Positions 1,083 to 18,462 of a DNA stretch of 57,252 bases are shown piece after piece. The number at the start of each line of letters is the position of its first letter. The first letter of the stretch is position 1. The stretch is from Arcobacter sp. (lineage in GTDB: Bacteria; Campylobacterota; Campylobacteria; Campylobacterales; Arcobacteraceae), in contig CBFIGT010000005.1 in the NCBI GenBank assembly GCA_965662175.1, forward strand, positions 1 through 57,252, read 5' to 3'. The notes beneath the pieces were generated by a model. The model was not told the origin of the DNA and did not search any database. It saw only the letters and a list, made by a program, of their open reading frames with translations. The translations under genes were made by a program, and so were the position numbers.

Positions 1083-1197
1083 GATAGGTAAAAAGCTCTA
1101 CAAGGCCCATTATATAGGATTAGTAGCATTTACGTAGCATTTAAAATTTATGTTTTTTTTGGTCAAAAAGATTAATATTTTATGCTACAATAATTTC

Positions 1198-3084
1198 ATG
1201 AAAACATTTAATTTTACATATCAAAACAATAGTTTCAAAAATATAATTGACTACTCATTGTTTAAAAATGAAGAGAATATATTAATACAAATATTTAGTG
1301 GACAAGATCATAGTACTTTAGAGTACATTATCTCTTTGCTTAGTAAAAATCTACCCCAAGCTATTATAATTGGTACTACAACTGATGGTGAAATTAAAGA
1401 TAAAAAAGTATCTACTTTAAAAACAGTGGTCTCAATATCTGTTTTTGAAAGCACTTTTATAAAAGCTTCAATAAAAAAAGGTCTTAACTCATTTCAAAAT
1501 GGTTATGATATTGCCCAAGAATTAATTACCTCAAATACCAAACTACTTATAACTTTTACAGATGGAACTTCAACAAATGGAGAAGAGTTCTTAAAAGGTA
1601 TAACAGCTTTTGATAACTCAATTATGGTATGTGGAGGAATGGCTGGAGATAATGGAGTTTTTAAACAAACATATATCTCATTGGGCTCTAAAATAATTGG
1701 CTGTGGAGCTGTTGCTGTTTCTCTTAACTCTGATATTTTACAAGTTAGTAATGATTATAAATATGATTGGTCACCTATTGGAATTGAGCATACTATTGAT
1801 AAGGTAATTGGAAATAGAATTTATGAAATATCAGGTATGAAAGCAATTGAATTTTATGAAAAATATTTAGGAGATAGTGATTCTCATACAGAGTTTCCCC
1901 TAATAGTTCAAAGAAATGGCATGTCAGTTGCCCGTGCTGTTTTAACACGTTATTCTGATGGAAGTTTAGGTTGTGGAGGAAATTTATACAAAGGGGATAA
2001 GGTTAAACTTGGATTTGCAAATGCTGAAATGATTATCAAAAATCCAGTGAAATATTTAAAAAATATTAACAACTATCCAGCTGAAACATTTTTTATTTAT
2101 TCATGTATGGCAAGACGAAGATATATGCAAAATCTTATCAAAGTAGAGATAGAGCCTTTTGCACAAATAGCACCAACAGCTGGTTTTTTTACCTATGCGG
2201 AGTTTTTTCACACAAATAAAAGAAATGAACTTATGAACCAAACTATAACCTTAGTTGGTCTAACAGAAAATCCCCACTCCTCTAAAAAAGTTATTGAAGA
2301 GAGTAGTAATATTGTAAATCACAATGAAAGTTCATATGCAAAAACTATTCAAGCCCTTACAAGTTTAATTCAACAAAGTGCAAAAGATCAAAATGAGCAA
2401 TCAAAAGTATTAGAAGAGCAGATTAAATATTCACAAAATTTACTAAAAAATCAAAAACTATTCCTAAGACACGCTGTTCATGAAACAAATACCCCTCTTT
2501 CAGTTATTATGAGCAATATTGATTTACATGAAATGGAACATGAAAAAAGCGAATATATCTCTAATATAGAGGTTGCTATGAAAAATATCTTCTCTATTTA
2601 TGATGATTTAAGCTATTTGGTTAAAAAAGATCAAGTTGAGTATAAAATTTACTCCATAGATTTAATTGATTTTGTAAGAAATAGAGTCTATTTTTTCAAA
2701 AATGTAGCTAATCAAGTCTCTTCAAAATTTAGTTTTCAAACAAATAATGATGAGATGAGTATAAAATTTAGTGAAACAAAACTTCAAAGAATAGTTGATA
2801 ATACATTAACAAATGCAATAAAATATACTTATAAGGGAAAACCCATCAATGTAAAACTTGAAAAAATTAATAAAACTCTTAAGTTTTCTGTTTCAAGTAA
2901 CTCAAAAAAAATCCAACACCCTGAAAAAATATTTGAAGAGTATTATAGGGAAGAGAAATCAAAAGATGGTTTTGGTCTTGGATTAAACCTAGTAAAAAGA
3001 ATTTGTGATGAAGAGGATGTTCTAATTGAACTTGTTTCAGACTCAAAAAACACATGTTTTACTTATACTTTTAAAGGATGCTGA
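1198..3084 (+). CDS. Soluble FIST-domain sensor histidine kinase
   Basis: FIST-N/FIST-C motifs (IIGTTTDGEI, GGMAGD, YSCMARR, GFFTYAE), H-box HETNTPL, N-box NAIKY, G-box GFGLGL; no transmembrane segment. Start moved from 1150 to ATG 1198, which lies 7 nt after TGcTACAAT. Confidence 0.88.
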   Translation: MKTFNFTYQNNSFKNIIDYSLFKNEENILIQIFSGQDHSTLEYIISLLSKNLPQAIIIGTTTDGEIKDKKVSTLKTVVSISVFESTFIKASIKKGLNSFQNGYDIAQELITSNTKLLITFTDGTSTNGEEFLKGITAFDNSIMVCGGMAGDNGVFKQTYISLGSKIIGCGAVAVSLNSDILQVSNDYKYDWSPIGIEHTIDKVIGNRIYEISGMKAIEFYEKYLGDSDSHTEFPLIVQRNGMSVARAVLTRYSDGSLGCGGNLYKGDKVKLGFANAEMIIKNPVKYLKNINNYPAETFFIYSCMARRRYMQNLIKVEIEPFAQIAPTAGFFTYAEFFHTNKRNELMNQTITLVGLTENPHSSKKVIEESSNIVNHNESSYAKTIQALTSLIQQSAKDQNEQSKVLEEQIKYSQNLLKNQKLFLRHAVHETNTPLSVIMSNIDLHEMEHEKSEYISNIEVAMKNIFSIYDDLSYLVKKDQVEYKIYSIDLIDFVRNRVYFFKNVANQVSSKFSFQTNNDEMSIKFSETKLQRIVDNTLTNAIKYTYKGKPINVKLEKINKTLKFSVSSNSKKIQHPEKIFEEYYREEKSKDGFGLGLNLVKRICDEEDVLIELVSDSKNTCFTYTFKGC

Positions 3085-3743
3085 TGAAAATATTATTATT
3101 AGAAGATGATATTATGTTAAACAAAGCTATTAAACAATACTTAGAATCAACAGGTCATGCTGTTATTTCAGCAATGGATGGAAATTGCTGTTTAGAGATT
3201 TTAAAAGAAGAGAGATTTGATTTACTTGTTTTTGATATAAATGTTCCTGATGTGGATGGTTTAACTATTTTGGAGGATTTGCATAGCCAAAAAAGAATGG
3301 TACCCACTATTTTTATCTCAGCACTTATTGATATTGAAGATATTACACGTGCATTTGATATAGGTTGTCATGATTATTTAAAAAAACCTTTCCATTTAAA
3401 AGAGTTAACACTTAGAATAAACAAGATTTTAAAAACAAGACAAGTACCACAAGAGCATAAAAGATTATCAAAATCATATAGTTATGATGCAAAAAATATG
3501 ATTCTACTTTTTAATAATGAACCTCAAATTTTACCAAAAAGACAAATACAAATTATTGATTTATTAGCTGCAAATAGAAGCTTAGTATGCAATTATGATA
3601 TGTTTAGAGATTATGTTTGGAATGATGATTATATAGATAATGCAACTATTCGAGCTGAAGTGAATAGAGTAAAAAAAGTCTTAAAAGAGGATTTCATCTC
3701 AAATATTAGAGGAATAGGTTATATGGTTGAAAGACCTAACTAA
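3084..3743 (+). CDS. OmpR-family two-component response regulator
   Basis: Receiver motifs LLEDD, FDINVP, KKPF; winged-helix C-terminus ending IRGIGY; start overlaps the kinase stop (TGATG). Confidence 0.92.
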   Translation: MKILLLEDDIMLNKAIKQYLESTGHAVISAMDGNCCLEILKEERFDLLVFDINVPDVDGLTILEDLHSQKRMVPTIFISALIDIEDITRAFDIGCHDYLKKPFHLKELTLRINKILKTRQVPQEHKRLSKSYSYDAKNMILLFNNEPQILPKRQIQIIDLLAANRSLVCNYDMFRDYVWNDDYIDNATIRAEVNRVKKVLKEDFISNIRGIGYMVERPN

Positions 3744-3868: not shown

Positions 3869-5320
3869 ATGCCAAAAAAAATTTCAAAAGTTCTAGTTGC
3901 AAATCGAGGTGAAATAGCTCTAAGAATAATTAGAGCTTGCAAAGAGTTAGACATTAAAAGTGTTGCTATTTTCTCTGAAGTTGATGTTGATGGGGTATGG
4001 GTTAGAAAAGCTGATGAGTGCTATCCACTTTTAGGTGACCCAATTCAAGCTTATTTAAATTTTGACAAAATTATTGCTTTAGCAAAAAAAGCCTCTTGTG
4101 ATGCAATTCATCCAGGTTATGGCTTTTTATCTGAAAATGCTGAGTTTGCCAAAGCTTGTGAAAAAGCAGGTATTATTTTTATAGGTCCAAAAGCTGAGCA
4201 TATTGCACTTTTTGGTGATAAAATGGCCTCAAAAGTAGCTATGAAAAAGATTGGTGTTCCAGTTTTAGAGGGGACGGATACTCCTATTTTAGATGTAAAA
4301 GAGGGTGAAAGAATCTCAAAAGAGATTGGTTTTCCAATTATTATCAAAGCTGCCTTTGGTGGAGGTGGTAGAGGTATGAGAATAGTAAAAGAGGAAAAAA
4401 ACTTTAAAGAGATGTTTGAAGCAGCAACTTCTGAAGCTAAAAAATTCTTTGGAAAAGGTGACGCTTTTATTGAAAAATATGTAGAAAACCCAAGACATAT
4501 TGAGATTCAAGTTATTGCTGATAAGTATGGAAATGTTTTACACTTAGGGGAGAGAGATTGCTCTATTCAAAGAAGACATCAAAAAGTAATTGAAATAGCT
4601 CCAAGTCCAAGACTTAATGAAAAAGTTAGACGGGAGTTATATAGGGTTTCTACAAAGGCTATGTTTAAATTAGGTTATGAAAGCGTTGGTACTATTGAGT
4701 TTTTAGTTGATAGTAGTGATAATTTTTATTTTATTGAGATGAATACAAGAGTTCAAGTTGAACATCCCGTAACAGAGATTACCACAGGTATTGATATTAT
4801 TCAAAGAATGATTGAGATAGCTGAGGGTGATAAACTACAATTTTTACAAGAAGAGATAAAATTTAGAGGTTATGCAATTGAGTTTAGAATAAATGCTGAA
4901 GACCCAAAAAAGAAATTTATGCCATCAAGTGGTACTGTAAATAAATATTTAACACCAGGAGGTCCTGGAGTTAGACTTGATACAGCTGTTTATACAGGAT
5001 ATAAAGTTCCTGCAAACTATGATTCTATGATTGGAAAACTTATTGTTTGGGCTCTTGATTGGGATGGCGCTGTTAGAAAAGCTAGACGAGCTTTAGATGA
5101 GTTTTATATAGAGGGACTTCCTACAAATATCCCTTTACATAGGGAAATTGTAAGGGATTTAGATTTTATTGAGGGTAAACTAGATACTAGTTATTTGGAT
5201 AAAAAACTTGAAAAATTTAATCTTGATGCCATTGATCATATTGAAGAAGAAGAGAAAAAGATGAAAAATATTGCTTTAGTGATAGAGCAAATTAAAAAAA
5301 ATAAATTAAACGTAAGATAA
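3869..5320 (+). CDS. Biotin carboxylase subunit (pyruvate carboxylase subunit A / AccC family)
   Basis: ANRGEIA, HPGYGFLSEN, GGGGRGMR, RDCSIQRRHQK, EMNTRVQVEH motifs; 483 aa with C-terminal extension as in PycA-type subunits. Confidence 0.9.
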   Translation: MPKKISKVLVANRGEIALRIIRACKELDIKSVAIFSEVDVDGVWVRKADECYPLLGDPIQAYLNFDKIIALAKKASCDAIHPGYGFLSENAEFAKACEKAGIIFIGPKAEHIALFGDKMASKVAMKKIGVPVLEGTDTPILDVKEGERISKEIGFPIIIKAAFGGGGRGMRIVKEEKNFKEMFEAATSEAKKFFGKGDAFIEKYVENPRHIEIQVIADKYGNVLHLGERDCSIQRRHQKVIEIAPSPRLNEKVRRELYRVSTKAMFKLGYESVGTIEFLVDSSDNFYFIEMNTRVQVEHPVTEITTGIDIIQRMIEIAEGDKLQFLQEEIKFRGYAIEFRINAEDPKKKFMPSSGTVNKYLTPGGPGVRLDTAVYTGYKVPANYDSMIGKLIVWALDWDGAVRKARRALDEFYIEGLPTNIPLHREIVRDLDFIEGKLDTSYLDKKLEKFNLDAIDHIEEEEKKMKNIALVIEQIKKNKLNVR

Positions 5321-5336
5321 TCTCTTACGTTTAATT
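5304..5336. terminator. Hairpin between convergent biotin carboxylase and pqqE
   Basis: Perfect 14-bp inverted repeat AATTAAACGTAAGA-taatc-TCTTACGTTTAATT. Confidence 0.7.
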
Positions 5337-5342
5337 AAATAT

Positions 5343-6446
5343 CTATTTACAATAGTTTAAAGAGTTTTGTCTATTTCTATAAATAGGCTCTTTTGAAAAA
5401 GAGCTCAAAGCTCTTTCTACTTTTTTTGTAACTACACTATGAAAAGATGATTTATCACAAACAGGGTCAGCCTCATTCATATCGCCTGTTAGGGCATAAG
5501 CTTGACATCTACATCCACCAAAATCAGCCTCTTTTTCTGGACAAGTTCGGCAAGGCTCTTTCATCCACTTATCACCCCTAAAAAAGTTAAAAGCTTCACT
5601 ATCATTCCAAATCTCACGTACTGAAAAATCTTTTACATTTGGAAAGTTTAGTGGTAGAGTATTTGCTGTATTGCAAGGAAGTGCTACACCATCAGGATTT
5701 ATAGTTAAAAATGTTGTCCCCCAGCCATTCATACAAGCTTTTGGTCTTGTTGCAAAATAATCAGGCACTACAAAAAACACCTTCATATCATCTCTTTTTT
5801 CCCTATAATAATCAACTTCCTCTTTTGCTTTTATTAACTGCTCTTGCGTAGGAAGTAAGGCATCAATATTTTCTAAAGCCCAACCATAATATTGTATATT
5901 TGCTATCTCTAAATAGTTGGCATCCAAAGAGTTTGCAAACTCAATTATATCCCCTACTTGATGGATATTTTGTCTTGTGATACAAGAGTTAATTATTAGT
6001 TGTAAGCCATTCTCTTTACAAGCTTTTGCAAAGGCGATTTTATCTCTTTGAGCATTTTTATTATTTGTAATTAGTGCTGTTGTAATTGCATCATGTGATT
6101 GAATTCCAAGTTGTACAGTTTTTAATCCTGCCTCTTTTAGTTTTGGAATTATTGATAAATCACAAGCAACACCTGAAGTTATAAGATTTGTATAAAACTT
6201 CAAATCAGCTGCTTTTTTTACTATTTCTACAATATCTTTATTTAAAAGTGGCTCCCCACCTGAAAAACCAAGTTGAACAGCTCCCATGGCACGAGCTTCT
6301 TCCATAACCCTAAACCAATCCTCTTTTGTCATACTATCTTTTGTATTTGCAAAATCAAGTTGATTATAACAATATGAACACTCTAAAGGACACTTATGAG
6401 TTAACTCTAAAAGCATCCATAAAGGTGGTTTGATTTTACTCTCCAT
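5343..6446 (-). CDS. pqqE: PQQ biosynthesis radical SAM/SPASM enzyme PqqE
   Basis: PPLWMLLELTHKCPLECSYC, QYYGWA, RPKACMNGWG, DFGGCRCQA; operon context. Confidence 0.96.
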   Translation of the reverse strand: MESKIKPPLWMLLELTHKCPLECSYCYNQLDFANTKDSMTKEDWFRVMEEARAMGAVQLGFSGGEPLLNKDIVEIVKKAADLKFYTNLITSGVACDLSIIPKLKEAGLKTVQLGIQSHDAITTALITNNKNAQRDKIAFAKACKENGLQLIINSCITRQNIHQVGDIIEFANSLDANYLEIANIQYYGWALENIDALLPTQEQLIKAKEEVDYYREKRDDMKVFFVVPDYFATRPKACMNGWGTTFLTINPDGVALPCNTANTLPLNFPNVKDFSVREIWNDSEAFNFFRGDKWMKEPCRTCPEKEADFGGCRCQAYALTGDMNEADPVCDKSSFHSVVTKKVERALSSFSKEPIYRNRQNSLNYCK

Positions 6447-6705
6447 AAACTACCCACTTTCTATTTAAAGCCTCAATTAAAAATGCCTCAACATCTTTTT
6501 TTAAATCAGCTACTTGAAACTTTTCTTCAAGTATTTTTGCAATATCAAGTGTAGAGTTTTTACCATCACATAAATTCATAATTTCACCAGCACTTTGATT
6601 TAACTGTACCATTCCCTCAGGATATAAAAGTACAAAACACTCCTGTGCTTCTTCGTATTGCAGTTGAAAATGATTATTCACTACAAGTGATTTTTCTAGT
6701 TGCAT
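6436..6705 (-). CDS. pqqD: PQQ biosynthesis peptide chaperone PqqD
   Basis: 89 aa, [24 protein letters not shown]; lies between pqqC and pqqE. Confidence 0.93.
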
Positions 6706-7447
6706 TACAATCCTTTATATTAAAGTATGGTGGTCTTTTAAGCTCATAAGCCAAATATAAAGCATCACACATAGTCCATAAAATATCAAGTTTAAACTGT
6801 AATATTTCACAAGCTTTATTTTGTAATTCGCATGTATTAAACTCTTCTAAAGTTAAGGCTAAACCATGTTGAACATCTCTTCTTGCTTCACTTAATCTTT
6901 TTTGAAAATATCTTAAGCCATTTGCTTCTATCCAAGGATAGTTTTTTGGCCAAGTATCAAGTCTTTGTTGATGAATTTGAGGTGCAAACATTTCAGTAAG
7001 TGATGACATAGCAGCCTCTTTCCAAGGTCTTTGTTTTGCAAAATTTATATAAGCATCTACTGCAAATTTAACAGCTGGTAAAACATATTTATGAGATATT
7101 AAATCCTCTTTTTTAAGTCCTACTGCAACACCAAGTTCTAACCAAGCTTCAATTCCACCACCTACACTATCATGGTCAATTATTCTATCTATCCATTTTC
7201 TTCTATCTTCAAGGGGTGGATTATTTGACATAATAGCTGCATCTTTTATGGGAATAGCTGTTTGATAATAAAATCTATTTGCAACCCAACCTTGAATCTC
7301 CTCTTTAGAACAAGACCCCTCATACATTCTTATATGAAAAGGATGATGAATATGATACATTTCACCCATAGCTCTTAGTTTGGCTTCAAACTCCTCTTTT
7401 GATAATAAGTTATCCATTCTTTTAGTCATACTATTTTCCTCTTTCAT
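6674..7447 (-). CDS. pqqC: PQQ synthase PqqC
   Basis: [44 protein letters not shown]; true start could be a downstream Met. Confidence 0.96.
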
Positions 7448-7448
7448 A

Positions 7449-8366
7449 TTAAATTTCTATACTCATACCATCATAAGATATCTCAATCCCATGACTTATA
7501 AGCTCTTTATATTCATCATTCTCTTCATCCAAAATTGGATTTGTATTATTTATATGTATTAATATTTTTCGTGGTTTTTCTAAAGTATCTAAAACTTTTA
7601 TCAAACCATCTTCTCCATTTAAAGGAATATGTCCCATCTCAGTTCCAAGTTTTTTTGAAAAGTTTCCTTTTATCATCTCATCATTTGTCCAAAGAGTTCC
7701 TTCCAATAAAAGGATATCTGCTTTTTTCATCTCTTCTAAAATATGATCTTCTAAAACTCCAAGTCCTGGAAGATAAAACAGTCTTTTACCTGTATTTTTA
7801 TTTACAACTGTAACTCCTATATTATCACCCTTTCTTGGTTTATCTCTATAGGCTGAATATGGAGGTGCATTTGAGATTAGTGAATGGGCATAAAACTCAT
7901 ATGAAGGCATAACAGGTATTTCAAATTTTGTAGTAGAATTTGCAACAATTTCATGCCAAAAAGTTCCTCCACCATCCCAGTGTTTTAACATTTTCATTAA
8001 AGGAAATGATGTATTTAACTCTTCATTTACCTCTTTTGTACAATAAATTTGGTGAGGACATCCCTCTCTTAACATAAGTAAACCCGTTGTGTGGTCAATT
8101 TGAGCATCATTAAAAATGATAGCTTTTATTTTTGTTTCTCTTTTTTTCTTTGGATGTAAAAAGGGTGAATTATGAATTTGTTCTAAAATATCTGGTGAGG
8201 TGTTAAATAAAACCCAATTTTCACCATCTTCACTTATAGTAATAGAACTTTGAGTTCTTCTTTTAATACTTTTTTTACCCTCTCTATAGCCTTTGCAATT
8301 ATCACAATTACAGTTAAACTGAGGAAGTCCACCACCTGCACTTGAACCTAAAACTTCTATTTTCAT
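7449..8366 (-). CDS. pqqB: PQQ biosynthesis protein PqqB
   Basis: [42 protein letters not shown]. Confidence 0.96.
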
Positions 8367-8415
8367 AAAAAAACCTTCATATTTTTTTAATTGAATCTAA
8401 AATATAGACTCAAGT

Positions 8416-8447
8416 AAAAAAATAGAGCTAGAAAAAATCTAGCTCTA
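8416..8447 (-). terminator. Stem-loop with U-tract between pqqA and pqqB
   Basis: TAGAGCTAGA-aaaaa-TCTAGCTCTA (8423-8447) followed on the minus strand by a T7 run; a hairpin after pqqA is common in pqq operons. Confidence 0.75.
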
Positions 8448-8460
8448 ATATTTTTAAATC

Positions 8461-8535
8461 TTATTCGTGACAAATATACATTGTAACTTCGAATCCAAAT
8501 CTATTATCTACGAACATTGGTGTTTCCCATTTCAT
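8461..8535 (-). CDS. pqqA: PQQ precursor peptide PqqA (24 aa)
   Basis: Not in ORF track. MKWETPMFVDNRFGFEVTMYICHE* with the E-x3-Y (EVTMY) core; strong AAGGAGG RBS; directly upstream of pqqB. Confidence 0.97.
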   Translation of the reverse strand: MKWETPMFVDNRFGFEVTMYICHE

Positions 8536-8571
8536 CTCTTTGCCCTCCTTTTTTAAATTTTTCGGGTGTTA

Positions 8572-10350
8572 CTATTTATGTAGTTTAAATACGTGAACAG
8601 TTCCACCCTGATTGATGTTTTTGATTTTTTTAGCAACTTCACCACCCCATAAAGGAACAGCTCCACCCCAACCTGATACGATTGCAATATATTGCTCACC
8701 ATTTGTTTCCCATGTAACAGGAGAAGCAACAATTCCAGAACCTACATTGAATTTATATAAAATCTCACCTGACTCATCATCAAATGCTAAGAATTTACCC
8801 TCAGGAGTTCCTGCAAATACAAGTCCGCCAGCTGTAGTTAAAACTCCACCCCATAGTGGTGATGGGTTTTTATAATTCCATTTAATCTCACCTGTTAATG
8901 GATTAATAGCTTTAAGTGAACCAATATGATCTTCAAAAATTGGTTTAATAGTAAATCCAGCACCTAAGTAAGCAGCACCTTTTTTATAAGAAACCGGTTG
9001 ATTCCAAATATCCATTCCCCACTCATTTGATGGAACATAAAACATCTCTGTTTTTTTAGAATAAGCCATTGGCATCCAGTTTTTACCACCTAAGAATGAA
9101 GGTACTGAAAATACTGACTTACCTTTACTAGCTCCATTTGGATTTCCAGGTCTTCCATCTTCTGTAAAGATTGGTTTACCATCTTTATCAATTCCTTTTG
9201 CCCAAGTAATATTTGAAACAAATGGATTTGCTGTAATAAATTTACCATTAGTTCTATCTAATACATAAAAGAAACCATTTCTATCTGCAGTTGCAGCTAG
9301 TTTTTTACCATCTTTGTTAAATGAAATTAACTCATTAACACCATCAAAATCCCAACCATCATGTGGAGTTGTTTGGAAATGCCAAACAATTTTTCCAGTG
9401 TTTGGATTGATTGCTAATCTTGAAGATGAGTATAAGTTATCTCCAGGTCTTAAGTGTGAATTCCAAGGTGCTGGATTTCCTGTTCCAAAGAATAATAAAT
9501 CAGTCTCAGGATCATAAGTTCCACCAAGCCAAGTAGCAGCTCCACCTGATTTCCATAAATCACCAGGCCAAGTAAGTCCTGCTTCTCCACCTGTTATTCC
9601 ATTTTCTTTACCATTTAAGTAACCCATATGTCCTTCAACAGTTGGTCTAGTCCATACAACTTCACCAGTTTTTGCATCTCTTGCTTCAACCTTACCAACA
9701 ATACCAAACTCACCACCTGCAACACCTGTGATAACCATATCTTTTACAATAATTGGAGCTGCTGTAATTGAGTAACCATCTTTATAGTTGTTTACTTTTT
9801 TCTTCCATACAACTTTTCCAGTTTCTCTATCAAGAGCAACTAATTTTGCATCTAATGTTCCAAAAATAACTAAATTATCATATATTGCTGCACCTCTGTT
9901 GATAACATCACAACATGGTAAAATAGCATCAGGAAGTTTTGCATCATATTGCCATAACTCTTCACCACTTGCAATATCAATAGCAAACATTCTAGAGTAA
10001 GATCCAGTTACATACATAACTCCATCTTTGATTATTGGTTGAGACTCTTGCCCTCTTTGTTTCTCACCACCAAAAGAGAAGTTCCATACAGGAACTAAAT
10101 TTTTAACTGTAGTTTTATTTACTTGAGTTAATGGTGAAAATCTTTGGCCTTGAAGCCCCATTCCATTTGTAAGTACATCTCCCGTACTTTGTTCATCATT
10201 TAAGATTTCTAAATTAGTAACAGGGGCATATGATGGTTTTGTAACCTCACTTATGCTATTATTCATCGTGTTGTTTGAAGTAACACACCCGCTAATTAGT
10301 GCAGATAGTGTGATGGCTGCTGCGCTAGTTAGTAGTTTTTTGTTAATCAT
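8572..10350 (-). CDS. pedH: PQQ-dependent alcohol (ethanol) dehydrogenase, lanthanide-type PedH/ExaF-like, predicted lipoprotein
   Basis: Vicinal disulfide [36 protein letters not shown] (D334-x-D336), C-terminal [15 protein letters not shown]; lipobox ISG-C22. Confidence 0.88.
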
Positions 10351-10399
10351 TTTTTCTCCTTATTGTTTTAATAACAAACTGAAAATTTGTCTGATTGGA

Positions 10400-10431
10400 A
10401 GTATACTTGAGTTGTATAGCTTGAGTTTAGC
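10400..10431 (-). promoter_or_regulatory. Regulon box plus -10 for the pedH-pqqABCDE operon
   Basis: Minus strand GCTAAA-ctcaa-GCTATA-caactcaag-TATACT. Confidence 0.8.
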
Positions 10432-11209
10432 TATGATTTACTTTTTTACTCTTGAAGCCTACAAAGGCCATAATTAAGGCAATAACTAAAGAAAAACCTA
10501 AAATCAAAAACACCTCAAAATCAAATTTTAGATATAAAGAGAAGCGAATTGACTCTACTATATAAGTAAATGGATTGTATGTTGAGATATTAAAAAGTAA
10601 TATTGATGAGTCTTTTATCTTCCAAAGTGGATAAAGAGCTGAACTTAAAAAAAACATAGGGAAAATAACAAAATTCATAACCGTAGCAAAATTTTCCAAC
10701 TGCTTTATAACAGATGAAATAAAAAGTGCAAAAGCATTTAGTATAATTGATGAAACAATAATCACAGGAATAGTTACTAATATAGCAAAATATGAAATCT
10801 CAACCCCATAAAGTTTAGCAATAATCAAAAAAGTAATAGCTTGAATAGTAGAAACAATTGCTGTTGCAAACATCTTACAAAATAGTAAATAGTTTCTATT
10901 TATATAAGAGGTTAATAAAATCTTCATACTTCCCATTTCTCTATCAAATATCATAGTTAGACTACTTTGCATACCATTAAAAAGCAAAACCATCCCCACA
11001 AGTCCAGGCACTATATATGTTTCATAGGTAATATATGTCTCATAGGGTGGAATAATTGCAAGTCCTAAAGCTGTTTTAAATCCAACAGAAAATATAAAAA
11101 GCCAAAGTAGCGGCCTTACAAGAGCTGAAAAAAATCTACTCTTTTGTTTTATAAATCTTATTAACTCTTTATAAACAATTCCCTGCATACAGTATAAATA
11201 TTTTTTCAT
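10427..11209 (-). CDS. ABC-2 permease, PQQ alcohol dehydrogenase system (PedC-like)
   Basis: SALVRPLLWLFIF, PPYETYITYETYIVPGL, DREMGSM, LSSALYPLWK; cluster context. Confidence 0.88.
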   Translation of the reverse strand: MKKYLYCMQGIVYKELIRFIKQKSRFFSALVRPLLWLFIFSVGFKTALGLAIIPPYETYITYETYIVPGLVGMVLLFNGMQSSLTMIFDREMGSMKILLTSYINRNYLLFCKMFATAIVSTIQAITFLIIAKLYGVEISYFAILVTIPVIIVSSIILNAFALFISSVIKQLENFATVMNFVIFPMFFLSSALYPLWKIKDSSILLFNISTYNPFTYIVESIRFSLYLKFDFEVFLILGFSLVIALIMAFVGFKSKKVNHS

Positions 11210-11212
11210 AAC

Positions 11213-11935
11213 TTAGCCTACTAGATAGTTAAAAGTATCTATCAAACTCTTTTTTTCATATTTTGATAAAAGTTCTTGAACTATCCCACTATCTACTATT
11301 TTCCCTGATTTTATAATAGAAATATCATCAGCTAACTCTACCTCATCAAATAAATGTGTTATCCAAAGAACAGAAATACCATCCTCTTTTACAAGATTTC
11401 TAACATAAGCTAAAATATCAAATCTAGCTTTTACATCAAGTCCAACGGTTGCTTCATCCAAAAGTAAAAGTTTTGGTCTATTTATAAGTGCTCTTAAAAT
11501 CTCTACTCTTCTTCTATGCCCACCATTTAATTTTCGCACTTGGGTATCTAAAATATTTTCTAATTCTAATTTTTTAATTTGAGAGTCAATACTCTCTAAA
11601 GTCTCTTTAAAACTTAAACCCTTTAATGAACCATAATAATACAAGTTTTGTTTAACAGTTAAATCCAAATCTAAAGTTGGCTCTTGAAATACAATCCCAA
11701 TATCTTTTAAGGCTTTTGAATAGTTTTTTATTGAGTAGCCATTTATATCTATCTCACCTTTTTGAAGATTTTGCAATCTTGTAATAAGTGAAAAAATCGT
11801 AGATTTACCTGCACCATTTAATCCTAAAAGCACAAAAAAACTAGCCTCTTTTATGGAAAAAGAGACATTATTTAAAGCTACTTTTTTACCATAAGCAAAC
11901 TCTACATCTTTGAAGTTTAATATATTTTCTTTCAT
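11213..11935 (-). CDS. ABC ATP-binding subunit, PQQ alcohol dehydrogenase system (PedB-like)
   Basis: Walker A GLNGAGKS, VFQEPTLDLDL, signature LNGGHRRRVEI, LLLDE; start moved to MKENIL (11935), just after the upstream stop. Confidence 0.88.
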   Translation of the reverse strand: MKENILNFKDVEFAYGKKVALNNVSFSIKEASFFVLLGLNGAGKSTIFSLITRLQNLQKGEIDINGYSIKNYSKALKDIGIVFQEPTLDLDLTVKQNLYYYGSLKGLSFKETLESIDSQIKKLELENILDTQVRKLNGGHRRRVEILRALINRPKLLLLDEATVGLDVKARFDILAYVRNLVKEDGISVLWITHLFDEVELADDISIIKSGKIVDSGIVQELLSKYEKKSLIDTFNYLVG

Positions 11936-11939
11936 ATTA

Positions 11940-12896
11940 TTACTTTGGAATAACAGCAAGTCCCCAAGGGTATCTTCCAACTTGAATACTCTTTTCAACT
12001 TTTAAACTCTCAACATCTATAACAGAAACGTCACTACTTACACCATTTGTTGTATAGAGTTTTTTCTCATTTTGTGCAAACTCCAACTGCCATACTCTTT
12101 TACCAACTAATAAATATTTAATCACTTTATATGTTTTTGCATCAATAACCGCCACATGATTTGCAGGCCCCAAAGCTACAAATGCATATTTACCATCTGA
12201 TGTGAGTTTTATACCAACAGGTTGAATCAAATCTTTGAAAATTCCTGGTATTTTAAATGTGATTTTAGCAATGCTCTCTTTTGATTTAGAGTCAACAACC
12301 ATAACAGTCCCACCAATCTCACTTGAAGCCCACACCTTATCACCTGTTTTACTAAACTCAATATGTCGTGGGCGTTGGTCAACTAAAGTATTGTGGATAA
12401 TCTTTTTTGTTTTGGTATCAATCCAGTGTAAAAAGTTTGAGGTTTCAGTTGTATTTATAGCAACTGTTCCATCAGGACTTACAGCCATTCCCTCAGGCTC
12501 AACACCAACTTCAATCTGTTTTATTACTGTTCTGTTTACTGTATCAACAACTGTTACAATTGCATCATCTTCATTTGAAATATAAAGCTCTTTTCCATCA
12601 GGAGTCAAAGCAAACTGTTCAGGGTCTTCACCTGAGGGTAAATTATAAATAATCTTTTTTGATTTTAAATCAAGTACTTGAACAGTATCATCATCACTTG
12701 CACAAATATAAAGCTGAGTGTTGTCTTTGTTTAATAATATCCCCCGTGGACGCTGCCCCACTTCAATAGTGTCAATTACTTTGTTTGTATATGAATCAAT
12801 TACTGATAATGTGTTATCTTTTTCATTTGATACATAAATTGTATCTGCAAAAAGAAAACTACTTAGTGCTAAACTTGTCATTAATATTTTTTTCAT
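11940..12896 (-). CDS. Periplasmic YVTN beta-propeller, PQQ-catabolism-associated (PedA2-like)
   Basis: Signal peptide; IYVSNEKDNT, VGQRPRGI, SGEDPEQF, VGVEPEGM, VGRYPWG repeats. Confidence 0.88.
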   Translation of the reverse strand: MKKILMTSLALSSFLFADTIYVSNEKDNTLSVIDSYTNKVIDTIEVGQRPRGILLNKDNTQLYICASDDDTVQVLDLKSKKIIYNLPSGEDPEQFALTPDGKELYISNEDDAIVTVVDTVNRTVIKQIEVGVEPEGMAVSPDGTVAINTTETSNFLHWIDTKTKKIIHNTLVDQRPRHIEFSKTGDKVWASSEIGGTVMVVDSKSKESIAKITFKIPGIFKDLIQPVGIKLTSDGKYAFVALGPANHVAVIDAKTYKVIKYLLVGKRVWQLEFAQNEKKLYTTNGVSSDVSVIDVESLKVEKSIQVGRYPWGLAVIPK

Positions 12897-12924
12897 TTTG
12901 TTTCCTTTTATTTTATAGTTTCTT

Positions 12925-12956
12925 ATTGTAGAGAATATTTATAGCTTGAGTTTAGC
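12925..12956 (-). promoter_or_regulatory. Regulon box plus -10 for the beta-propeller/ABC operon
   Basis: Minus strand GCTAAA-ctcaa-GCTATA-aatattctc-TACAAT. Confidence 0.8.
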
Positions 12957-12998
12957 AGGTGGTTTTTATTTTATTATATATAATTTCCACAAATAATA

Positions 12999-13027
12999 TT
13001 GACATTGTAAATACATTATGATAGACT
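12999..13027 (+). promoter_or_regulatory. Sigma70 promoter of brnT-brnA (probably leaderless) with palindromic operator candidate
   Basis: TTGACA (12999-13004), 17-bp spacer containing TGTA-aa-TACA, TGaTAGACT; ATG 7 nt after the -10 with no RBS. Confidence 0.65.
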
Positions 13028-13033
13028 ATTTTT

Positions 13034-13318
13034 ATGAAATATGAATGGGATGAAGAAAAAAATAGACTAAATCTACAAAAGCACGGCATATCATTTGAAG
13101 AAGCAAAAGAGGTTTTTAATGATGCTCTTCACATATCAAAACTAGATAAAAGATTTAGTTATTTTGAAGAAAGATGGATAAGCATTGGTTCAACTTCAAA
13201 ATATAAAGTTTTAGTTGTTGCCAATTTATTCTTTACAGATGAAGGTGAAGAAATTATTAGAATAATAAGTGCTAGAAGAGCTAACAAAAAAGAAAGGCAA
13301 AGTTATGAAAAGTGTTGA
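13034..13318 (+). CDS. brnT: BrnT-family ribonuclease toxin
   Basis: YEWDEEKNRLNLQKHGISFEEA...EERW..IG...IRIISARRA. Confidence 0.92.
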   Translation: MKYEWDEEKNRLNLQKHGISFEEAKEVFNDALHISKLDKRFSYFEERWISIGSTSKYKVLVVANLFFTDEGEEIIRIISARRANKKERQSYEKC

Positions 13319-13553
13319 AGAAAGAGCAAAATTTGATAATTTTGAATTGGAAGATAATTATGATTTTACAGATGGTATTAGAGGAAGATTTTATAAACCT
13401 AAAAAAGTACCTACCTCTATGAGATTGGATGATGATATTTTACTTTTTTTAAAAAAAGAAGCAAGTGAAAAAAAAATACCATATCAAACACTAATTAATA
13501 ATTTACTTAGAGAGCATATGCAAGTACATGGAATAAAAAAACAAATCAACTAA
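13305..13553 (+). CDS. brnA: BrnA-family antitoxin (ribbon-helix-helix)
   Basis: YDFTDGIRGRFY...SMRLDDDILLFLK...YQTLINNLLR; overlaps the toxin 3' end; start set to ATG 13305. Confidence 0.87.
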   Translation: MKSVEERAKFDNFELEDNYDFTDGIRGRFYKPKKVPTSMRLDDDILLFLKKEASEKKIPYQTLINNLLREHMQVHGIKKQIN

Positions 13554-13561
13554 TCATCCTC

Positions 13562-13593
13562 GCTAAACTTAAGCTATAAACCTTTTATATACT
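13562..13593 (+). promoter_or_regulatory. Regulon box plus -10 for the ABC substrate-binding gene
   Basis: GCTAAA-cttaa-GCTATA-aacctttta-TATACT. Confidence 0.8.
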
Positions 13594-13618
13594 TATTAAA
13601 AGTATATAAAGGCGAAAA

Positions 13619-14767
13619 ATGAGATTGATATTATTGACTATTGTTTTCTTAAGTTTTATAAAAGCTGATATTTTAGATGTAAATATTTTATATCTAGAAC
13701 AAAAAATAAAAAAACCACCTGTTTTATCAAATGTAATCGAAGAACCTAGTGATTTAGGTATAAAAGGTGCGCAAGTTGCCATAATAGATAGCAATAAAAG
13801 TGCTAAATTTTTAAATCAAAAATATACTTTAGAAACATCTATATCTTATAATAAAAAAGAGTTAGAAAAAAGTTTTGAAGAGTTTATAAATAAAAACAAT
13901 AGTTTTGTGATTTTAAATGTGGAAGATGATTTTTTAAAAGAGTTACTAAATCATCCCTTATCAAAAAAAGCCCTATTTTTAAATGCAAGTAGCCAAAATA
14001 GTGATTTACGAAAAAACTATTGCCAAAAAAATCTACTACATACAACTCCTAGCAATGCCATGCTTTATGATGGTTTAGCTCAATTTTTAGTAAAAAGAAA
14101 TTTTAAAGATATATTTTTATTAAGTGGAAAAAATCAAAAAGATATAGAAATAACAACAGATATAAAAAGAGCTGCAAAAAAGTTTGGGCTAAAAATAGTC
14201 AAAGAAAAAACTTGGGAAAATAGTAGCGATATTAGAAGAAAAGCTAGTGCTGAGTTTCCCTCTTTTACTCAAGCTGATGATTATGATGTGATGATGGTTT
14301 CTGATTATTATGGAGATTTTGGAGAGTTTTTGTATTTTAATACCTGGCTTCCAAGACCAATAGCTGGAACACAAGGATTAAAGCCACTTTTATGGCATAA
14401 AGTAATAGAAGCTTGGGGTGCTGCTCAAATGCAAAATAGATTTGAAGCTTACTCAAATAGATGGATGGAATCACGTGACTTTTCAAACTGGATAGCAATT
14501 AGAACTATTATAAATTCACTAATGCACACAAAATCAAAAGATTTAAAAACAAATATTGATTATATTCACTCAAAAGAGTTTGAGCTAGGTGCATATTTGG
14601 GAAGAAAACTTTCATATAGGGATTATAATGGACAAATAAGATTACCTATCTCACTTGTTCAACCAAGAGCTTTAATCTCAAGCTCTCCTCAAGTTGGTTT
14701 TTTGCATCCGCTTACTGATTTAGATACTTTAGGAATTGCACCTTTTGAGATGGAGTGTAAAAAATGA
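13619..14767 (+). CDS. ABC substrate-binding protein, PQQ alcohol dehydrogenase system (PedA1-like)
   Basis: Signal peptide; LLHTTPSNAMLYDGLAQFL, WLPRPIAGTQGL, WGAAQMQNRF, SPQVGFLHP..DLDTLG. Confidence 0.85.
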   Translation: MRLILLTIVFLSFIKADILDVNILYLEQKIKKPPVLSNVIEEPSDLGIKGAQVAIIDSNKSAKFLNQKYTLETSISYNKKELEKSFEEFINKNNSFVILNVEDDFLKELLNHPLSKKALFLNASSQNSDLRKNYCQKNLLHTTPSNAMLYDGLAQFLVKRNFKDIFLLSGKNQKDIEITTDIKRAAKKFGLKIVKEKTWENSSDIRRKASAEFPSFTQADDYDVMMVSDYYGDFGEFLYFNTWLPRPIAGTQGLKPLLWHKVIEAWGAAQMQNRFEAYSNRWMESRDFSNWIAIRTIINSLMHTKSKDLKTNIDYIHSKEFELGAYLGRKLSYRDYNGQIRLPISLVQPRALISSSPQVGFLHPLTDLDTLGIAPFEMECKK

Positions 14768-15219
14768 TAAAACCTATATTTGCTTTTTTACTTTTTTGCT
14801 TAACTCTTAATGCTTATGAAATAGAAGATAAAACAGACTATTTTAAAGTAAAAATAAAAGAGAGAAGTTTTGAAAACTTATATTTAAATTTAAAAGATGA
14901 AATAGCATACAACTCTTATATACTTGTTTATGAATTAAATCTTGGAAAATCTACAGCAAGTGTAGCTAAGGCTTTAGATAAAAAAGCAGTAGTGAAAAAT
15001 GGAATAAACTTATTACTTTGTAAAAATAGCTTCACTTTAAAAATGCACGAAGAGAATATTGATAATATGACCTTTTGCCCTATGATTATCTCTATATATC
15101 AAGATGAAACCTCAAAATATATCTCTTTTAAAAAATATCACCCTTTAAAAAAGGGTGATAAAATAGCTAGCGAAATAAATAAAAGATTAAAAGAGCTAAT
15201 TTTAAATAGCTTAAAATAG
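14764..15219 (+). CDS. Exported DUF302-like protein
   Basis: Signal peptide; LLLCK...FCPMIISIY pattern and size resemble DUF302. Confidence 0.6.
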   Translation: MIKPIFAFLLFCLTLNAYEIEDKTDYFKVKIKERSFENLYLNLKDEIAYNSYILVYELNLGKSTASVAKALDKKAVVKNGINLLLCKNSFTLKMHEENIDNMTFCPMIISIYQDETSKYISFKKYHPLKKGDKIASEINKRLKELILNSLK

Positions 15220-15220
15220 A

Positions 15221-17281
15221 TTATTTTATTGGAAGTTCTATATAAAATATAGCTCCTGTTTCACTATTTTTTGCAGAGAGTTTTCCACCTAAACTTTCTG
15301 TTACTATTCTATAACTCATATTAAGTCCTAAACCTGTTCCCTCACTATCTTTTTTTGTAGTAAAATATGCTTCAAAGATTTTGGGTAAAATCTCTTCAGG
15401 AATTCCCCCTGCATTATCCTCAAAACTAATAATATAAGAATTTTCTTTTTTGATTAAATTGACACTTATAGTAGGATTTTCTATTTTATTTTCAATAAAA
15501 GCATCTTTTGCATTATTTATAATATTTATCATTACCTCTTCAAGTTCTCCTGAAACTAAATGTAAGCTAGCTGTTTTATCAGCTATATTATTTATAAGTT
15601 TAATATTATTATTGTATAAAGTTGTATTTATAAGATTTATTACTCTATTTAAACACTCTAAAATATTTACATTTTTTAACTCTTTTTTATCTTTTAAAAA
15701 GTTTCTAAAAGTCTCAATTGTATCTGACAAATAGTTAGCACTTTTTGTGATTTGTTCCATACTATCTTTAATTTCACTTTGCTGTAAAATATTCATCTCT
15801 TGTTTTAAAGAGATAGTAGTAGAAATAGTAGTAATTACAGATAATGGCTGTTTCCATTGATGAGCTATATTTCCAATCATCTCTCCCATAGCTGCCAATT
15901 TTGATTGATTTAACATTCTTTGTTTTTGTTCTTCAAACTCTTTTTTACTAGTAATATCATTTCTTTTAGAGATATATCCTGTTATTTTTTTATTTTTATT
16001 CCAAATAGGTTCAATAATGGCATCAACCCAATAATATGTACCATCTTTTTTTAGATTTTTAACTTCACCTTTCCAAGTTTTTCCACTTTGAATAGTTTCC
16101 CACATCTCTTTAAAAACACTACTATTTGTATCAGGGTGTCTTATTATACTATGTGGTTTTCCGATTAATTCCTCTTTTGTATAACCTGAAATATCACAAA
16201 ATGCTTTACTTACATAAGTTATATTTCCCTTTAAATCAGATTTTGAGAAAATTACATTATCATCATAAGTATTAAATAGTAAATTCAACTTTTTTTGTTG
16301 TTTAATTATTTTTGCTGTTTTTAGGGAAACCTCTTTATTTAAATATTTTGCATAGTTTCTATAAAAAAGATATAAAATTAATAAAATAAAAATAATTAGA
16401 AAAATAATCACTTTTATTAAATAATCAGCTTTGAAATCATACACAATAGATTTATCAAGCTTTTTTTCATCATAAAAAAATATAACAAATCCCATTTCTC
16501 CACCATGAATATCTTTTATTTGAGTTGTAAAAACTAAATAGTTCTCAAATAAAATTGGCTCATCCAAATACATTAATTTTTTTAATCCAAAAATTTCAGC
16601 TTTTTTCATAAGCTCTTTAGAAGCATTTAAATTAGCCACATAATTTTTACCAATAAAAAGTCCTGTAAATGGCTTAATAAATCTATTGGTATACTCTTCA
16701 TCTAAAACCATCAAAGGTTTTACTCCTACCTCTTCTAAAGCTGTTGCTATGGAGTTAAATTTAGAAATAACCTCAATTATTCCTATAAATTTATTTTCAT
16801 GAAAAAGTGGAATCATAGTCTTAAAAGTCATATCAAATCGACCGGTACTAATTCCTCTAATAGGTCTTGGATTTTTAATCATATCTACAATATCTATTCT
16901 TGCTTTAGCTGCATTATCCCCTACTTTATTAGTCCAACTTCTATAAAAGCTATACCCATCTTTATCAATAATTTGAATCCATAAATTCTTATTTTCATCA
17001 AAATTTTGAATATCTTTTATGATTTGTGTATAGTCGATTAATCTGTTATCATTTTTTAATAATGCTCTAGTTAATTTTTCATCTTTACTCAAAAGATATG
17101 TTAATGCAAAAGTTTTACCAAATTTTTTTTCAACTTCATTTTCAAAAAATGTAATAAGTTCATTTGATTTTGATTTATATAATTTGTTAGTTAAATTATC
17201 AATTTGCTTAGGATAATATAATCTATGAAAAATAAAAAGAGTAACAAAAACTACAATAATAAAATAAAATAATTTCTTCAT
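15221..17281 (-). CDS. Membrane sensor histidine kinase (periplasmic Cache-like domain, PAS)
   Basis: Two TM segments, PAS (SKSDLKGNITYVS...HSIIRHPD...WKGEVKN), H-box IAHQWKQPL, NNAKDA, GTGLGL. Confidence 0.9.
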   Translation of the reverse strand: MKKLFYFIIVVFVTLFIFHRLYYPKQIDNLTNKLYKSKSNELITFFENEVEKKFGKTFALTYLLSKDEKLTRALLKNDNRLIDYTQIIKDIQNFDENKNLWIQIIDKDGYSFYRSWTNKVGDNAAKARIDIVDMIKNPRPIRGISTGRFDMTFKTMIPLFHENKFIGIIEVISKFNSIATALEEVGVKPLMVLDEEYTNRFIKPFTGLFIGKNYVANLNASKELMKKAEIFGLKKLMYLDEPILFENYLVFTTQIKDIHGGEMGFVIFFYDEKKLDKSIVYDFKADYLIKVIIFLIIFILLILYLFYRNYAKYLNKEVSLKTAKIIKQQKKLNLLFNTYDDNVIFSKSDLKGNITYVSKAFCDISGYTKEELIGKPHSIIRHPDTNSSVFKEMWETIQSGKTWKGEVKNLKKDGTYYWVDAIIEPIWNKNKKITGYISKRNDITSKKEFEEQKQRMLNQSKLAAMGEMIGNIAHQWKQPLSVITTISTTISLKQEMNILQQSEIKDSMEQITKSANYLSDTIETFRNFLKDKKELKNVNILECLNRVINLINTTLYNNNIKLINNIADKTASLHLVSGELEEVMINIINNAKDAFIENKIENPTISVNLIKKENSYIISFEDNAGGIPEEILPKIFEAYFTTKKDSEGTGLGLNMSYRIVTESLGGKLSAKNSETGAIFYIELPIK

Positions 17282-17367: not shown

Positions 17368-17766
17368 TTAATATTTTCCAAACTCCTTATAACTATTATT
17401 TGAAAAAATAATATAAACAGTTTTTATCTCTTTATTATTCTCATAAGCAGGTAGTGATAAACCTATTGAGTCTTTTGGAATATTTTTAAAATAATCTTTT
17501 ATAGCTTTTAAAGGTACATTACCCTCAAATACATAATCATCTATTATGGATGTGTTACAAGATTGTAGCTCTTTTGGTACTCCTATTTCTCTTTTTAGAT
17601 TTTTTACACTCATTAAAGATACTATCTTTACATCACCAATCTCATTTTCCATATCATCAAGCCACTCTTTTGGACACTCACTTGTTACTGGTTTAAAGAT
17701 TTGCATTTTTTGATTTTGGGCAAAAAGAGCAAAAGTAAAAACTAAAATCAACATCAATTTTTTCAT
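17368..17766 (-). CDS. Exported DUF411/CopG-like protein with divergent metal ligands
   Basis: Signal peptide; KREIGVPKELQSCNTSIIDDYVFEGNVP...IGLSLP resembles the DUF411 pattern GVP..L.SCHT...Y..EGHVP...GLAVP. Confidence 0.65.
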   Translation of the reverse strand: MKKLMLILVFTFALFAQNQKMQIFKPVTSECPKEWLDDMENEIGDVKIVSLMSVKNLKREIGVPKELQSCNTSIIDDYVFEGNVPLKAIKDYFKNIPKDSIGLSLPAYENNKEIKTVYIIFSNNSYKEFGKY

Positions 17767-18461: not shown

Positions 18462-18462
18462 C

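Follow-up and report, generated by a model that had tools for sequence, protein, structure and literature searches.

The stretch of DNA analyzed here (the window; 57,252 nucleotides) is the entire contig 5, CBFIGT010000005.1, of the Arcobacter sp. assembly GCA_965662175.1 and harbors a gene island built around pedH, which encodes a pyrroloquinoline quinone (PQQ)-dependent alcohol dehydrogenase at 8572 to 10350 on the minus strand. pedH belongs to one co-directional minus-strand block with short gaps, arranged pedA2-pedB-pedC-pedH-pqqABCDE. The island furthermore contains pedA1 and the genes for cytochrome c550 PedF and the aldehyde dehydrogenase ExaC and thus holds the gene set of a ped-type system. 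The names of the transporter genes pedA1 and pedA2 follow PMC6839425. The gene order is common to seven named Arcobacteraceae loci. It differs from that in the loci of Pseudomonas, Alteromonadaceae, Azospirillum and Methylorubrum, where pedC-B-A2-A1 is divergent from pedF and pedH.

The pedH open reading frame (ORF) is intact, starts with ATG a few bases downstream of a Shine-Dalgarno-like AAGGAG and encodes 592 amino acids. Its product matches TIGR03075 (PQQ-dependent dehydrogenase, methanol/ethanol family) with 785.1 bits against a cut-off of 480.05, over profile positions 4 to 530 of 530. A phmmer search of the PDB returned 6zcw and 6zcv as top matches (about 900 bits over residues 44 to 592), entries titled as the lanthanide-dependent alcohol dehydrogenase PedH from Pseudomonas putida KT2440. 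ExaA of Pseudomonas aeruginosa (1flg) scored 653 bits and XoxF entries about 350 bits. The scores for TIGR03075 and for 6zcw/6zcv exclude a chance occurrence of the active-site motif. Compared with the ortholog in G045, the closed chromosome of a congeneric strain, pedH shows a ratio of nonsynonymous to synonymous substitution (dN/dS) of about 0.11 (dN 0.057, dS 0.51), which together with the intact frame rules out a pseudogene.

The active-site segment spans residues 327 to 340 of Arcobacter sp. PedH, as located by script. It contains the catalytic D334 (codon GAT, 9351 to 9349) and, two residues further, the additional aspartate of lanthanide-type enzymes as D336 (codon GAT, 9345 to 9343). 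An earlier reading of the letters alone (the sequence-only reading) had placed both aspartates at exactly these residues, and D336 at exactly this codon. It had also described the protein as closely following P. putida PedH, in agreement with the 68% identity found here. In the HMMER alignments, D334 aligns with D316 of 1flg, and the same columns read DFD in PedH and DFS in ExaA. C146, C147, E214, N292, D334 and D336 are invariant across 24 aligned sequences; the roles of the vicinal cysteines and of the Glu, Asn and Asp residues in metal binding and catalysis are those known from the ExaA and PedH structures. An AlphaFold2 model computed from this 24-sequence alignment reached a mean predicted local distance difference test (pLDDT) score of 74.4 and a predicted template modeling score of 0.80, with residues 1 to 35 below a pLDDT of 50. 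Its best PDB matches were again 6zcv and 6zcw (template modeling [TM] scores 0.86/0.91, 68% identity), followed by 1flg (51% identity), and both the model and its matches display the eight-bladed beta-propeller fold.

For class assignment, we assembled 143 distinct homologs from 80 named loci, the Arcobacteraceae loci and all family members in named genomes (a Pseudomonas juntendi genome, two Methylorubrum genomes and one Halioxenophilus genome). The residue at position +2 from the catalytic Asp is Asp in 119 sequences, Ser in 22 and Ala in two. The Ser rows include Pseudomonas PedE orthologs and nine Arcobacteraceae paralogs, and both Ala rows are MxaF. Reference rows were verified against the PDB (L075 as PedH, L140 as MxaF, L136 as XoxF1), and the Asp-type ORF of P. 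juntendi is essentially PedH (1,296 bits to 6zcw). An IQ-TREE phylogeny (LG+G4, rooted on XoxF/MxaF), built on 62 of the 143 rows so that every group was represented, resolved an Asp-type PedH/ExaF clade of 46 rows that contains Arcobacter sp. PedH (support 93/97) and a separate Ser-type PedE/ExaA clade of 11 rows (100/99). Arcobacter sp. PedH falls within a purely Arcobacteraceae clade (19 rows, 100/99), which is sister to the PedH rows of Pseudomonas and Alteromonadaceae (97/92). FastTree on all 143 rows agreed and united 43 Arcobacteraceae Asp rows in one clade with a support of 100. The protein therefore groups with PedH/ExaF rather than with PedE/ExaA, XoxF or MxaF, as the sequence-only reading had anticipated. 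Furthermore, at 22 positions that separate 72 PedH/ExaF rows from 13 Ser rows, all of them from outside the Arcobacteraceae, Arcobacter sp. PedH agrees with the Asp class at 20, with the Ser class at one (position 204) and with neither at one. On sequence grounds, the enzyme belongs to the PedH/ExaF (lanthanide) class of periplasmic PQQ alcohol dehydrogenases.

The N terminus of Arcobacter sp. PedH consists of a basic n-region followed by a hydrophobic core and a lipobox, L-I-S-G-C, with Cys22 as the putative lipidation site. A Ser/Thr/Asn-rich linker of about 21 residues follows, and the propeller begins at about residue 44. Periplasmic export and lipid tethering of the enzyme are thus predicted. 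Signal peptides were read by eye and with a regular expression. Among 42 full-length distinct sequences of the Arcobacteraceae PedH clade, 23 have the lipoprotein form (L002 being assigned by eye) and the other 19 an ordinary signal ending in A-x-A. Of 76 other Asp-type rows, the lipobox expression matched three, all of them ambiguous. A lipobox-like L-[TA]-S-C is also present in two of the nine Ser-type Arcobacteraceae enzymes, L112 (G043) and L113 (G017).

We analyzed how widespread the enzyme is and found a match in 58 of 184 Arcobacteraceae species genomes (E value of 1e-30 or less), representing 10 of 22 genera and including six of the seven other genomes of the host's genus. In an even sample of the phylum (401 genomes), matches occurred only in Arcobacteraceae, namely in the host genome and four of 23 others; no such enzyme was found in the 377 sampled genomes of 13 other Campylobacterota families. 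The PedH type is present in about 53 family genomes, as assigned by inspection of the motif in 43 distinct sequences and by an identity of at least 66% in the rest. Five genomes have the Ser type alone and four have both, G155 and G168 being examples of the latter. The Ser type corresponds to a paralog of about 55% identity in nine genomes, all nine with Ser at position +2 and in a clade of their own next to Pseudomonas PedE. The PedH-type trait is thus not special to this genome but common in the family. pedA2 occurs in 51 of the 184 genomes, and all 51 have the PedH type (51 of 53). It is absent from the five Ser-only genomes and from the 126 genomes with neither type, and the two PedH-type genomes that lack it are 76% and 78% complete. 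Since the genomes are related, this co-occurrence is given as a pattern and not as a statistical test. In the host genome, which is 94% complete, a single TIGR03075 match and no calcium-type paralog was found. The host genome accordingly lacks the PedE partner of a PedE-paired rare-earth switch; no search was made for PedS2/PedR2 orthologs.

Two irregular records were noted in the course of this survey. At G167:C15:400587-402372, a PedH-type gene is divided into two adjacent frames (residues 1 to 351 and 350 to 592), which points to a pseudogene, a frameshift or an error in sequencing. P0018, a 515-amino-acid partial sequence from the same 90%-identity cluster, lies on a 5.2-kb contig and bears the NCBI label "Sulfurovum sp.," which may be a matter of binning or naming. 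The tree set holds a length-matched 515-amino-acid partial sequence from G142, a genome placed in the host's family.

The genes around pedH were annotated individually. Downstream of it, the translated spacer between pedH and pqqB encodes a 24-amino-acid PQQ precursor peptide, pqqA (8461 to 8535, minus strand), with an E-x-x-x-Y sequence that we take to be the PqqA motif. A terminator-like hairpin with a 10-bp stem followed by a T run lies directly 3' of pqqA (8423 to 8447, minus strand), as detected in the promoter/terminator scan. The minus-strand genes pqqB (7449 to 8366; TIGR02108, 372 bits, cut-off 245), pqqC (6674 to 7447; TIGR02111, 331 bits, cut-off 240), pqqD (6436 to 6705; TIGR03859, 96 bits, cut-off 46) and pqqE (5343 to 6446; TIGR02109, 472 bits, cut-off 381) follow. 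Upstream of pedH and on the same strand lie the genes for the ABC-2 permease PedC (10427 to 11209; TIGR03861 phenyl_ABC_PedC, 337 bits, cut-off 241), the ABC ATPase PedB (11213 to 11998; TIGR03864, 291 bits, cut-off 302) and the YVTN beta-propeller transporter protein PedA2 (11940 to 12896; TIGR03866, 499 bits, cut-off 287). pedB is listed from a TTG at 11998. Translation more likely begins at the ATG at 11935; the profile match sets in at residue 27. Divergent from the pedH block, pedA1 (13619 to 14767, plus strand; TIGR03863, 411.2 bits, cut-off 413.6) encodes the periplasmic substrate-binding protein of the transporter. It is followed at 14764 to 15219 (plus strand) by a gene for a secreted protein of 151 amino acids, found beside pedA1 in six of the seven Arcobacteraceae loci. 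Pfam and NCBIfam scans gave no match for this protein. It is possibly DUF302-like, a lead from atlas feature scores of 0.87 to 0.89 to DUF302 clusters, which fall under the 0.9 line.

Further along the plus strand, pedF (20302 to 20712; TIGR04494 c550_PedF, 202 bits, cut-off 122) is followed by genes for a family-3 solute-binding protein (20715 to 21581; Pfam SBP_bac_3), which has an equivalent position in the Pseudomonas and Alteromonadaceae loci, a quinoprotein-dehydrogenase-associated SoxYZ-like carrier (21600 to 22340; TIGR04557, 138 bits, cut-off 140) and the quinoprotein relay system zinc metallohydrolase 1 (22337 to 23239; TIGR04558, 372 bits, cut-off 300). At the other end of the island, the contig end cuts the gene for an ExaC/PedI-like acetaldehyde dehydrogenase, leaving its N-terminal 317 amino acids (3 to 953, minus strand; NF050026 AcaldDHExaC, E value 1e-154, profile positions 11 to 321 of 503; Pfam Aldedh). 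exaC is adjoined, here as in six of the seven Arcobacteraceae loci, by the gene for a sensor histidine kinase with a FIST domain (1150 to 3084, plus strand; Pfam FIST, FIST_C, HisKA and HATPase_c), a candidate sensor for the island. Next to it lies a gene for an OmpR-family response regulator (3078 to 3743, plus strand; Pfam Response_reg and Trans_reg_C), 93% identical in G045. Far below threshold, and as no more than a lead, the kinase also weakly matches the models for NosP (41 bits, cut-off 450) and the C terminus of NahK/ErcS (50 bits, cut-off 400). ErcS' takes part in the control of ethanol oxidation in P. aeruginosa.

Several other genes are interspersed in the island. A biotin carboxylase gene (3869 to 5320, plus strand) has no collinear counterpart in G045, and a BrnT/BrnA-type toxin-antitoxin pair between pedA2 and pedA1 (13034 to 13553, plus strand; Pfam BrnT_toxin, E value 8e-27, and BrnA_antitoxin, E value 8e-10) is missing from the same place there. 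Likewise, the gene for a dCache_3/PAS histidine kinase (15221 to 17281, minus strand) has no collinear counterpart in G045, which contains a 39% partial match elsewhere. An operon at 17368 to 20153 (minus strand) encodes an SsuA/NMT1-like binding protein, a permease and an ATPase (SaoA/SaoP-like) together with a DUF411 protein and is kept in G045 with 53 to 61% identity. An Rfam scan of the window gave no family above threshold, and a sigma-70 promoter scan of positions 5200 to 13700 yielded 33 sites, fewer than the 42 expected from shuffles, and was thus not informative.

The intergenic regions of the island share a direct-repeat box, T[AT]TAGC-N5-T[AT]TAGC, with eight exact matches in the window, all of them between genes of the island. 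With one mismatch allowed, the count rose to 12, compared with 2.2 on average and at most 6 in shuffled sequence. The stricter form TATAGC-N5-T[AT]TAGC occurs nine times in the whole 2.6-Mb genome, eight of them in the island, and the reversed pattern does not occur. Single boxes are located 41 to 81 nucleotides upstream of pedH, pedA2, pedA1, pedF and the SsuA-like ABC operon, in the same orientation relative to the gene in all five cases. The pedH box (TATAGC-N5-TTTAGC; 10415 to 10431, plus strand) lies 65 to 81 nucleotides upstream of the ATG and overlaps the pedC stop codon; its orthologs are found 67 to 83 nucleotides upstream of pedH in L001, L002, L005 and L020 and nearby in L025. The other single boxes, likewise located by motif search, precede pedA2 by 44 to 60 nucleotides (12940 to 12956, plus strand) and pedA1 by 41 to 57 nucleotides (13562 to 13578, minus strand), and two lie between the SsuA-like operon and pedF (20199 to 20215, plus strand, and 20237 to 20253, minus strand), the box of the SsuA-like operon being 46 to 62 nucleotides upstream of it. 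In the spacer between exaC and the FIST kinase gene, four in-phase hexamers form three overlapping TATAGC-N5-TATAGC boxes (1044 to 1082, plus strand; exact at 1044, 1055 and 1066), which are kept at the orthologous place in Arcobacteraceae loci. Other loci of the family hold 65 boxes in 278 kb, at orthologous spacers, and the 40 kb of G045 searched away from the island contained none. A direct repeat of this kind, with a period of 11 bp, is suited to OmpR-type regulators, which makes the adjacent OmpR-type regulator (3078 to 3743) the obvious candidate, and this protein most likely binds the box. The sole exact box outside the island is found on contig 22 of the same genome (G000, 18274 to 18290; L170, 3275 to 3291), between nfo and genes for a pyridine-nucleotide-disulfide oxidoreductase and an LctP-family permease, with no clear link to the island.

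Among known systems, PedH of P. putida KT2440 (PP_2679; 6ZCV/6ZCW) is similar over the whole mature domain at the above-mentioned 68% identity and TM scores of 0.86/0.91. The two enzymes share the Cys-Cys pair, the Glu, Asn and Asp residues and the extra Asp, and their hosts share the helper genes pedA1, pedA2, pedB, pedC, pedF and pqq as well as those for an aldehyde dehydrogenase, the SoxYZ-like carrier and the metallohydrolase. In contrast to P. putida PedH, which has an ordinary signal peptide, the Arcobacter sp. form has a lipoprotein signal and a linker, and its host is from a different phylum. In Arcobacter sp., but not in P. putida, pedA2-pedB-pedC-pedH-pqqABCDE make up a single co-directional block, and the Arcobacter sp. 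genome lacks a PedE partner, so that no calcium/lanthanide switch would be possible. The AT-rich box and the OmpR/FIST pair were not seen in 12 Pseudomonadota loci. ExaF of Methylorubrum extorquens AM1 is represented by Methylorubrum sequences L043 and L071, which we take to be its orthologs. It shares the Asp-type clade, the motif and about 68 to 70% identity but falls into a separate subclade, Arcobacter sp. PedH being closer to the gammaproteobacterial PedH rows (97/92). The calcium-dependent PedE/ExaA enzymes (1FLG) have the same fold and all PQQ and metal ligands but one, at about 51 to 53% identity; they differ in Ser replacing Asp at position +2 and in their separate clade (100/99), and within the family they occur in nine genomes but not in the host's. 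XoxF and MxaF (6OC5, 1W6S) belong to the same superfamily, and XoxF also has the extra Asp, but with merely about 35 to 39% identity they form the outgroup of the tree.

These data suggest the following route, whose steps rest on homology unless stated otherwise. As predicted from the sequence, PedH would be exported by its lipoprotein signal and tethered via Cys22 and the linker of about 21 residues. The adjacent pqqABCDE genes would supply the PQQ that it binds, and a light lanthanide ion would be held by E214, N292, D334 and the extra D336. Ethanol or other short-chain alcohols or aldehydes would be oxidized, with electrons passing to cytochrome c550 PedF, encoded 10 kb away, and the resulting aldehyde would be oxidized by ExaC. 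The lanthanide would be provided by PedA1A2BC, three of whose four genes immediately precede pedH in the same orientation, and the OmpR-type regulator and the FIST-domain kinase would most likely control the box-bearing operons. Since no calcium-type PQQ alcohol dehydrogenase was found in the genome, the route would run only with lanthanides available.

Before this interpretation can be applied to Campylobacterota, it has to be asked whether the contig was misbinned or is contaminating gammaproteobacterial DNA, in which case the gene would not belong to the phylum. The assembly consists of 249 contigs (2.6 Mb, 94% complete) with an estimated contamination of 1.8%, and the closest relatives of the protein outside the family are gammaproteobacterial. 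Against this, the GC content is 28% throughout the window, and the GC content at third codon positions (GC3) of pedH, 0.167, equals the window median of 0.160. Of the 56 window ORFs, 45 are collinear with 80 kb of the closed 2.66-Mb chromosome G045, two match it elsewhere and nine have no match. The collinear set includes the genes for NusA, CysS, SSB, ribosomal protein S6, RNase R and IlvC and the whole island. The PedH of G045 is filed at NCBI as Arcobacter sp., and pedH is also present in closed and isolate genomes under the names Arcobacter roscoffensis and Arcobacter sp. YIC-464. The origin in Campylobacterota, on which the sequence-only reading depended, is also borne out by the NCBI names in the family, whose loci are identical to records named Arcobacter, Aliarcobacter or Arcobacteraceae. 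As far as sequence can show, contamination is thus refuted, and we give it next to no credence. pedH is chromosomal, host-adapted and under purifying selection, since the collinearity with G045, the GC3 and the dN/dS speak against both a contaminant and a recent arrival. A recent transfer was ruled out by the GC3 equal to that of the host and by synteny of the island within the genus. The island was probably acquired once, by an ancestor within the Arcobacteraceae, from a donor lineage near the Gammaproteobacteria, and so long ago that its codon usage has become that of the host.

A further question is whether the enzyme might use calcium, or either metal, despite its extra Asp, D-x-D being a poor predictor in this lineage. 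According to the preprint 10.64898/2026.07.10.737718, PQQ alcohol dehydrogenase types 2b and 6a are predicted to mix calcium and lanthanide enzymes, and a calcium/magnesium-characterized glucose dehydrogenase is argued to carry the motif as well (ISME J 2025). No assay of any Arcobacteraceae enzyme was found in the literature searched. On the other hand, the protein is 68% identical to P. putida PedH, which is active solely with lanthanides (PMC5487730), and it has the Asp-class residue at 20 of 22 diagnostic sites. The family moreover possesses a separate Ser-type clade that would be redundant if the Asp type used calcium, and pedA2, the marker for PedA1A2BC, accompanies the Asp type (51 of 53) but is missing from the Ser-only genomes (0 of 5). 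PedH and PedE are described as predictable from sequence in 10.64898/2026.07.10.737718. The extra Asp is reported to be required in XoxF1 and ExaF (bioRxiv 10.1101/2020.02.25.964783), and PedH-dependent growth of P. putida at nanomolar lanthanum needs PedA1A2BC (PMC6839425). We therefore regard use of calcium as improbable and lanthanide dependence of Arcobacter sp. PedH as very probable. Homology, the diagnostic sites and the adjacent PedA1A2BC genes lend good support to the predicted oxidation of alcohols with a rare-earth cofactor. A lanthanide-dependent PedH might also serve mainly in detoxification, in co-oxidation of volatile alcohols or aldehydes or in sensing, rather than in growth on ethanol, which would be compatible with the route outlined above. 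P. putida PedH has a broad substrate range and a regulatory, sensory role (PMC5487730), the substrate cannot be read from sequence, and an uncharacterized SsuA-like ABC system of the island stands under the same box. However, the ExaC-type acetaldehyde dehydrogenase gene (E value 1e-154) bears the box and adjoins the regulator pair, which fits a two-step path from alcohol to acid, and a main role other than growth appears rather unlikely.

Taken further, we lean, with little more than even confidence, towards obligately lanthanide-dependent periplasmic alcohol oxidation in this strain and in most island-bearing Arcobacteraceae, in which the sole quinoprotein alcohol dehydrogenase would be of the PedH type without calcium back-up, lipoprotein-tethered, co-transcribed with the lanthanide transporter and PQQ genes and governed by a family-specific two-component regulon (TATAGC-N5-TWTAGC). 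Several points weigh against the lanthanide-dependent route outlined above. PedB, PedA1 and the SoxYZ-like protein score slightly below their curated cut-offs, and an outer-membrane component for lanthanide uptake was not identified. The structural model has a pLDDT below 50 at the active-site loops 294 to 303 and 331 to 334. The 12 Pseudomonadota ped loci in which no box was found (259 kb) are GC-rich controls, so that an AT-rich motif is expected to be rarer there by chance. At 94% completeness, the genome may encode a second dehydrogenase on unassembled DNA. The PedH-type counts derive partly from identity bands and include, with the motif not inspected, G056, G058, G064, G166, G173 and G174 and the fragmentary G023, G141, G167 and G171. 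Given the mixture predicted for clade type 2b (10.64898/2026.07.10.737718), the clade alone is no proof of the metal. The class, fold, key residues, gene context and host are shown by sequence. We infer which metal the enzyme contains, its activity and range of substrates, its lipidation and the binding of the regulator to the box.

Lanthanide-dependent enzymes have so far been characterized mainly in methylotrophs and Pseudomonas. In the literature searched, no report connected Arcobacter, Arcobacteraceae, Campylobacterota or Epsilonproteobacteria with lanthanides, rare earths, PedH or PQQ alcohol dehydrogenases, which agrees with the remark in the sequence-only reading that no characterized lanthanide enzyme was known from this phylum; earlier surveys may list such sequences. 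Broad surveys report lanthanide-type PQQ dehydrogenases from a wide range of phyla, for example from 14 of 33 phyla of ocean metagenome-assembled genomes (PMC11996626). Public records, including those of cultured species, name the proteins "PQQ-dependent methanol/ethanol family dehydrogenase" and give no metal. The type of enzyme is already known, many members of the family carry its gene, and the public annotation is generic, while lanthanide use in Campylobacterota was not found reported. The island is not a new kind of system, its lipoprotein signal and family-specific box being minor local variations. If the proposal holds, it would represent the first lanthanide-dependent metabolism in Campylobacterota, would extend rare-earth use to this phylum via a family with cultured species and would make carbon turnover by bacteria of the Arcobacter kind dependent in part on the availability of rare earths. 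Isolates bearing pedH exist (Arcobacter roscoffensis, Arcobacter sp. YIC-464 and YIC-80, and Malaciobacter sp.), which makes direct testing possible. As a calcium-type back-up is missing from most carriers, their growth phenotype should be cleaner than that of Pseudomonas. The lipoprotein form and the compact transporter-enzyme-cofactor block could furthermore aid studies of metal loading.

Part of pedH was also detected in 20 public sequencing runs. At least half of its words were present in three of them, and the two runs certain to be RNA contained only a fraction of 0.05 to 0.07 of them.

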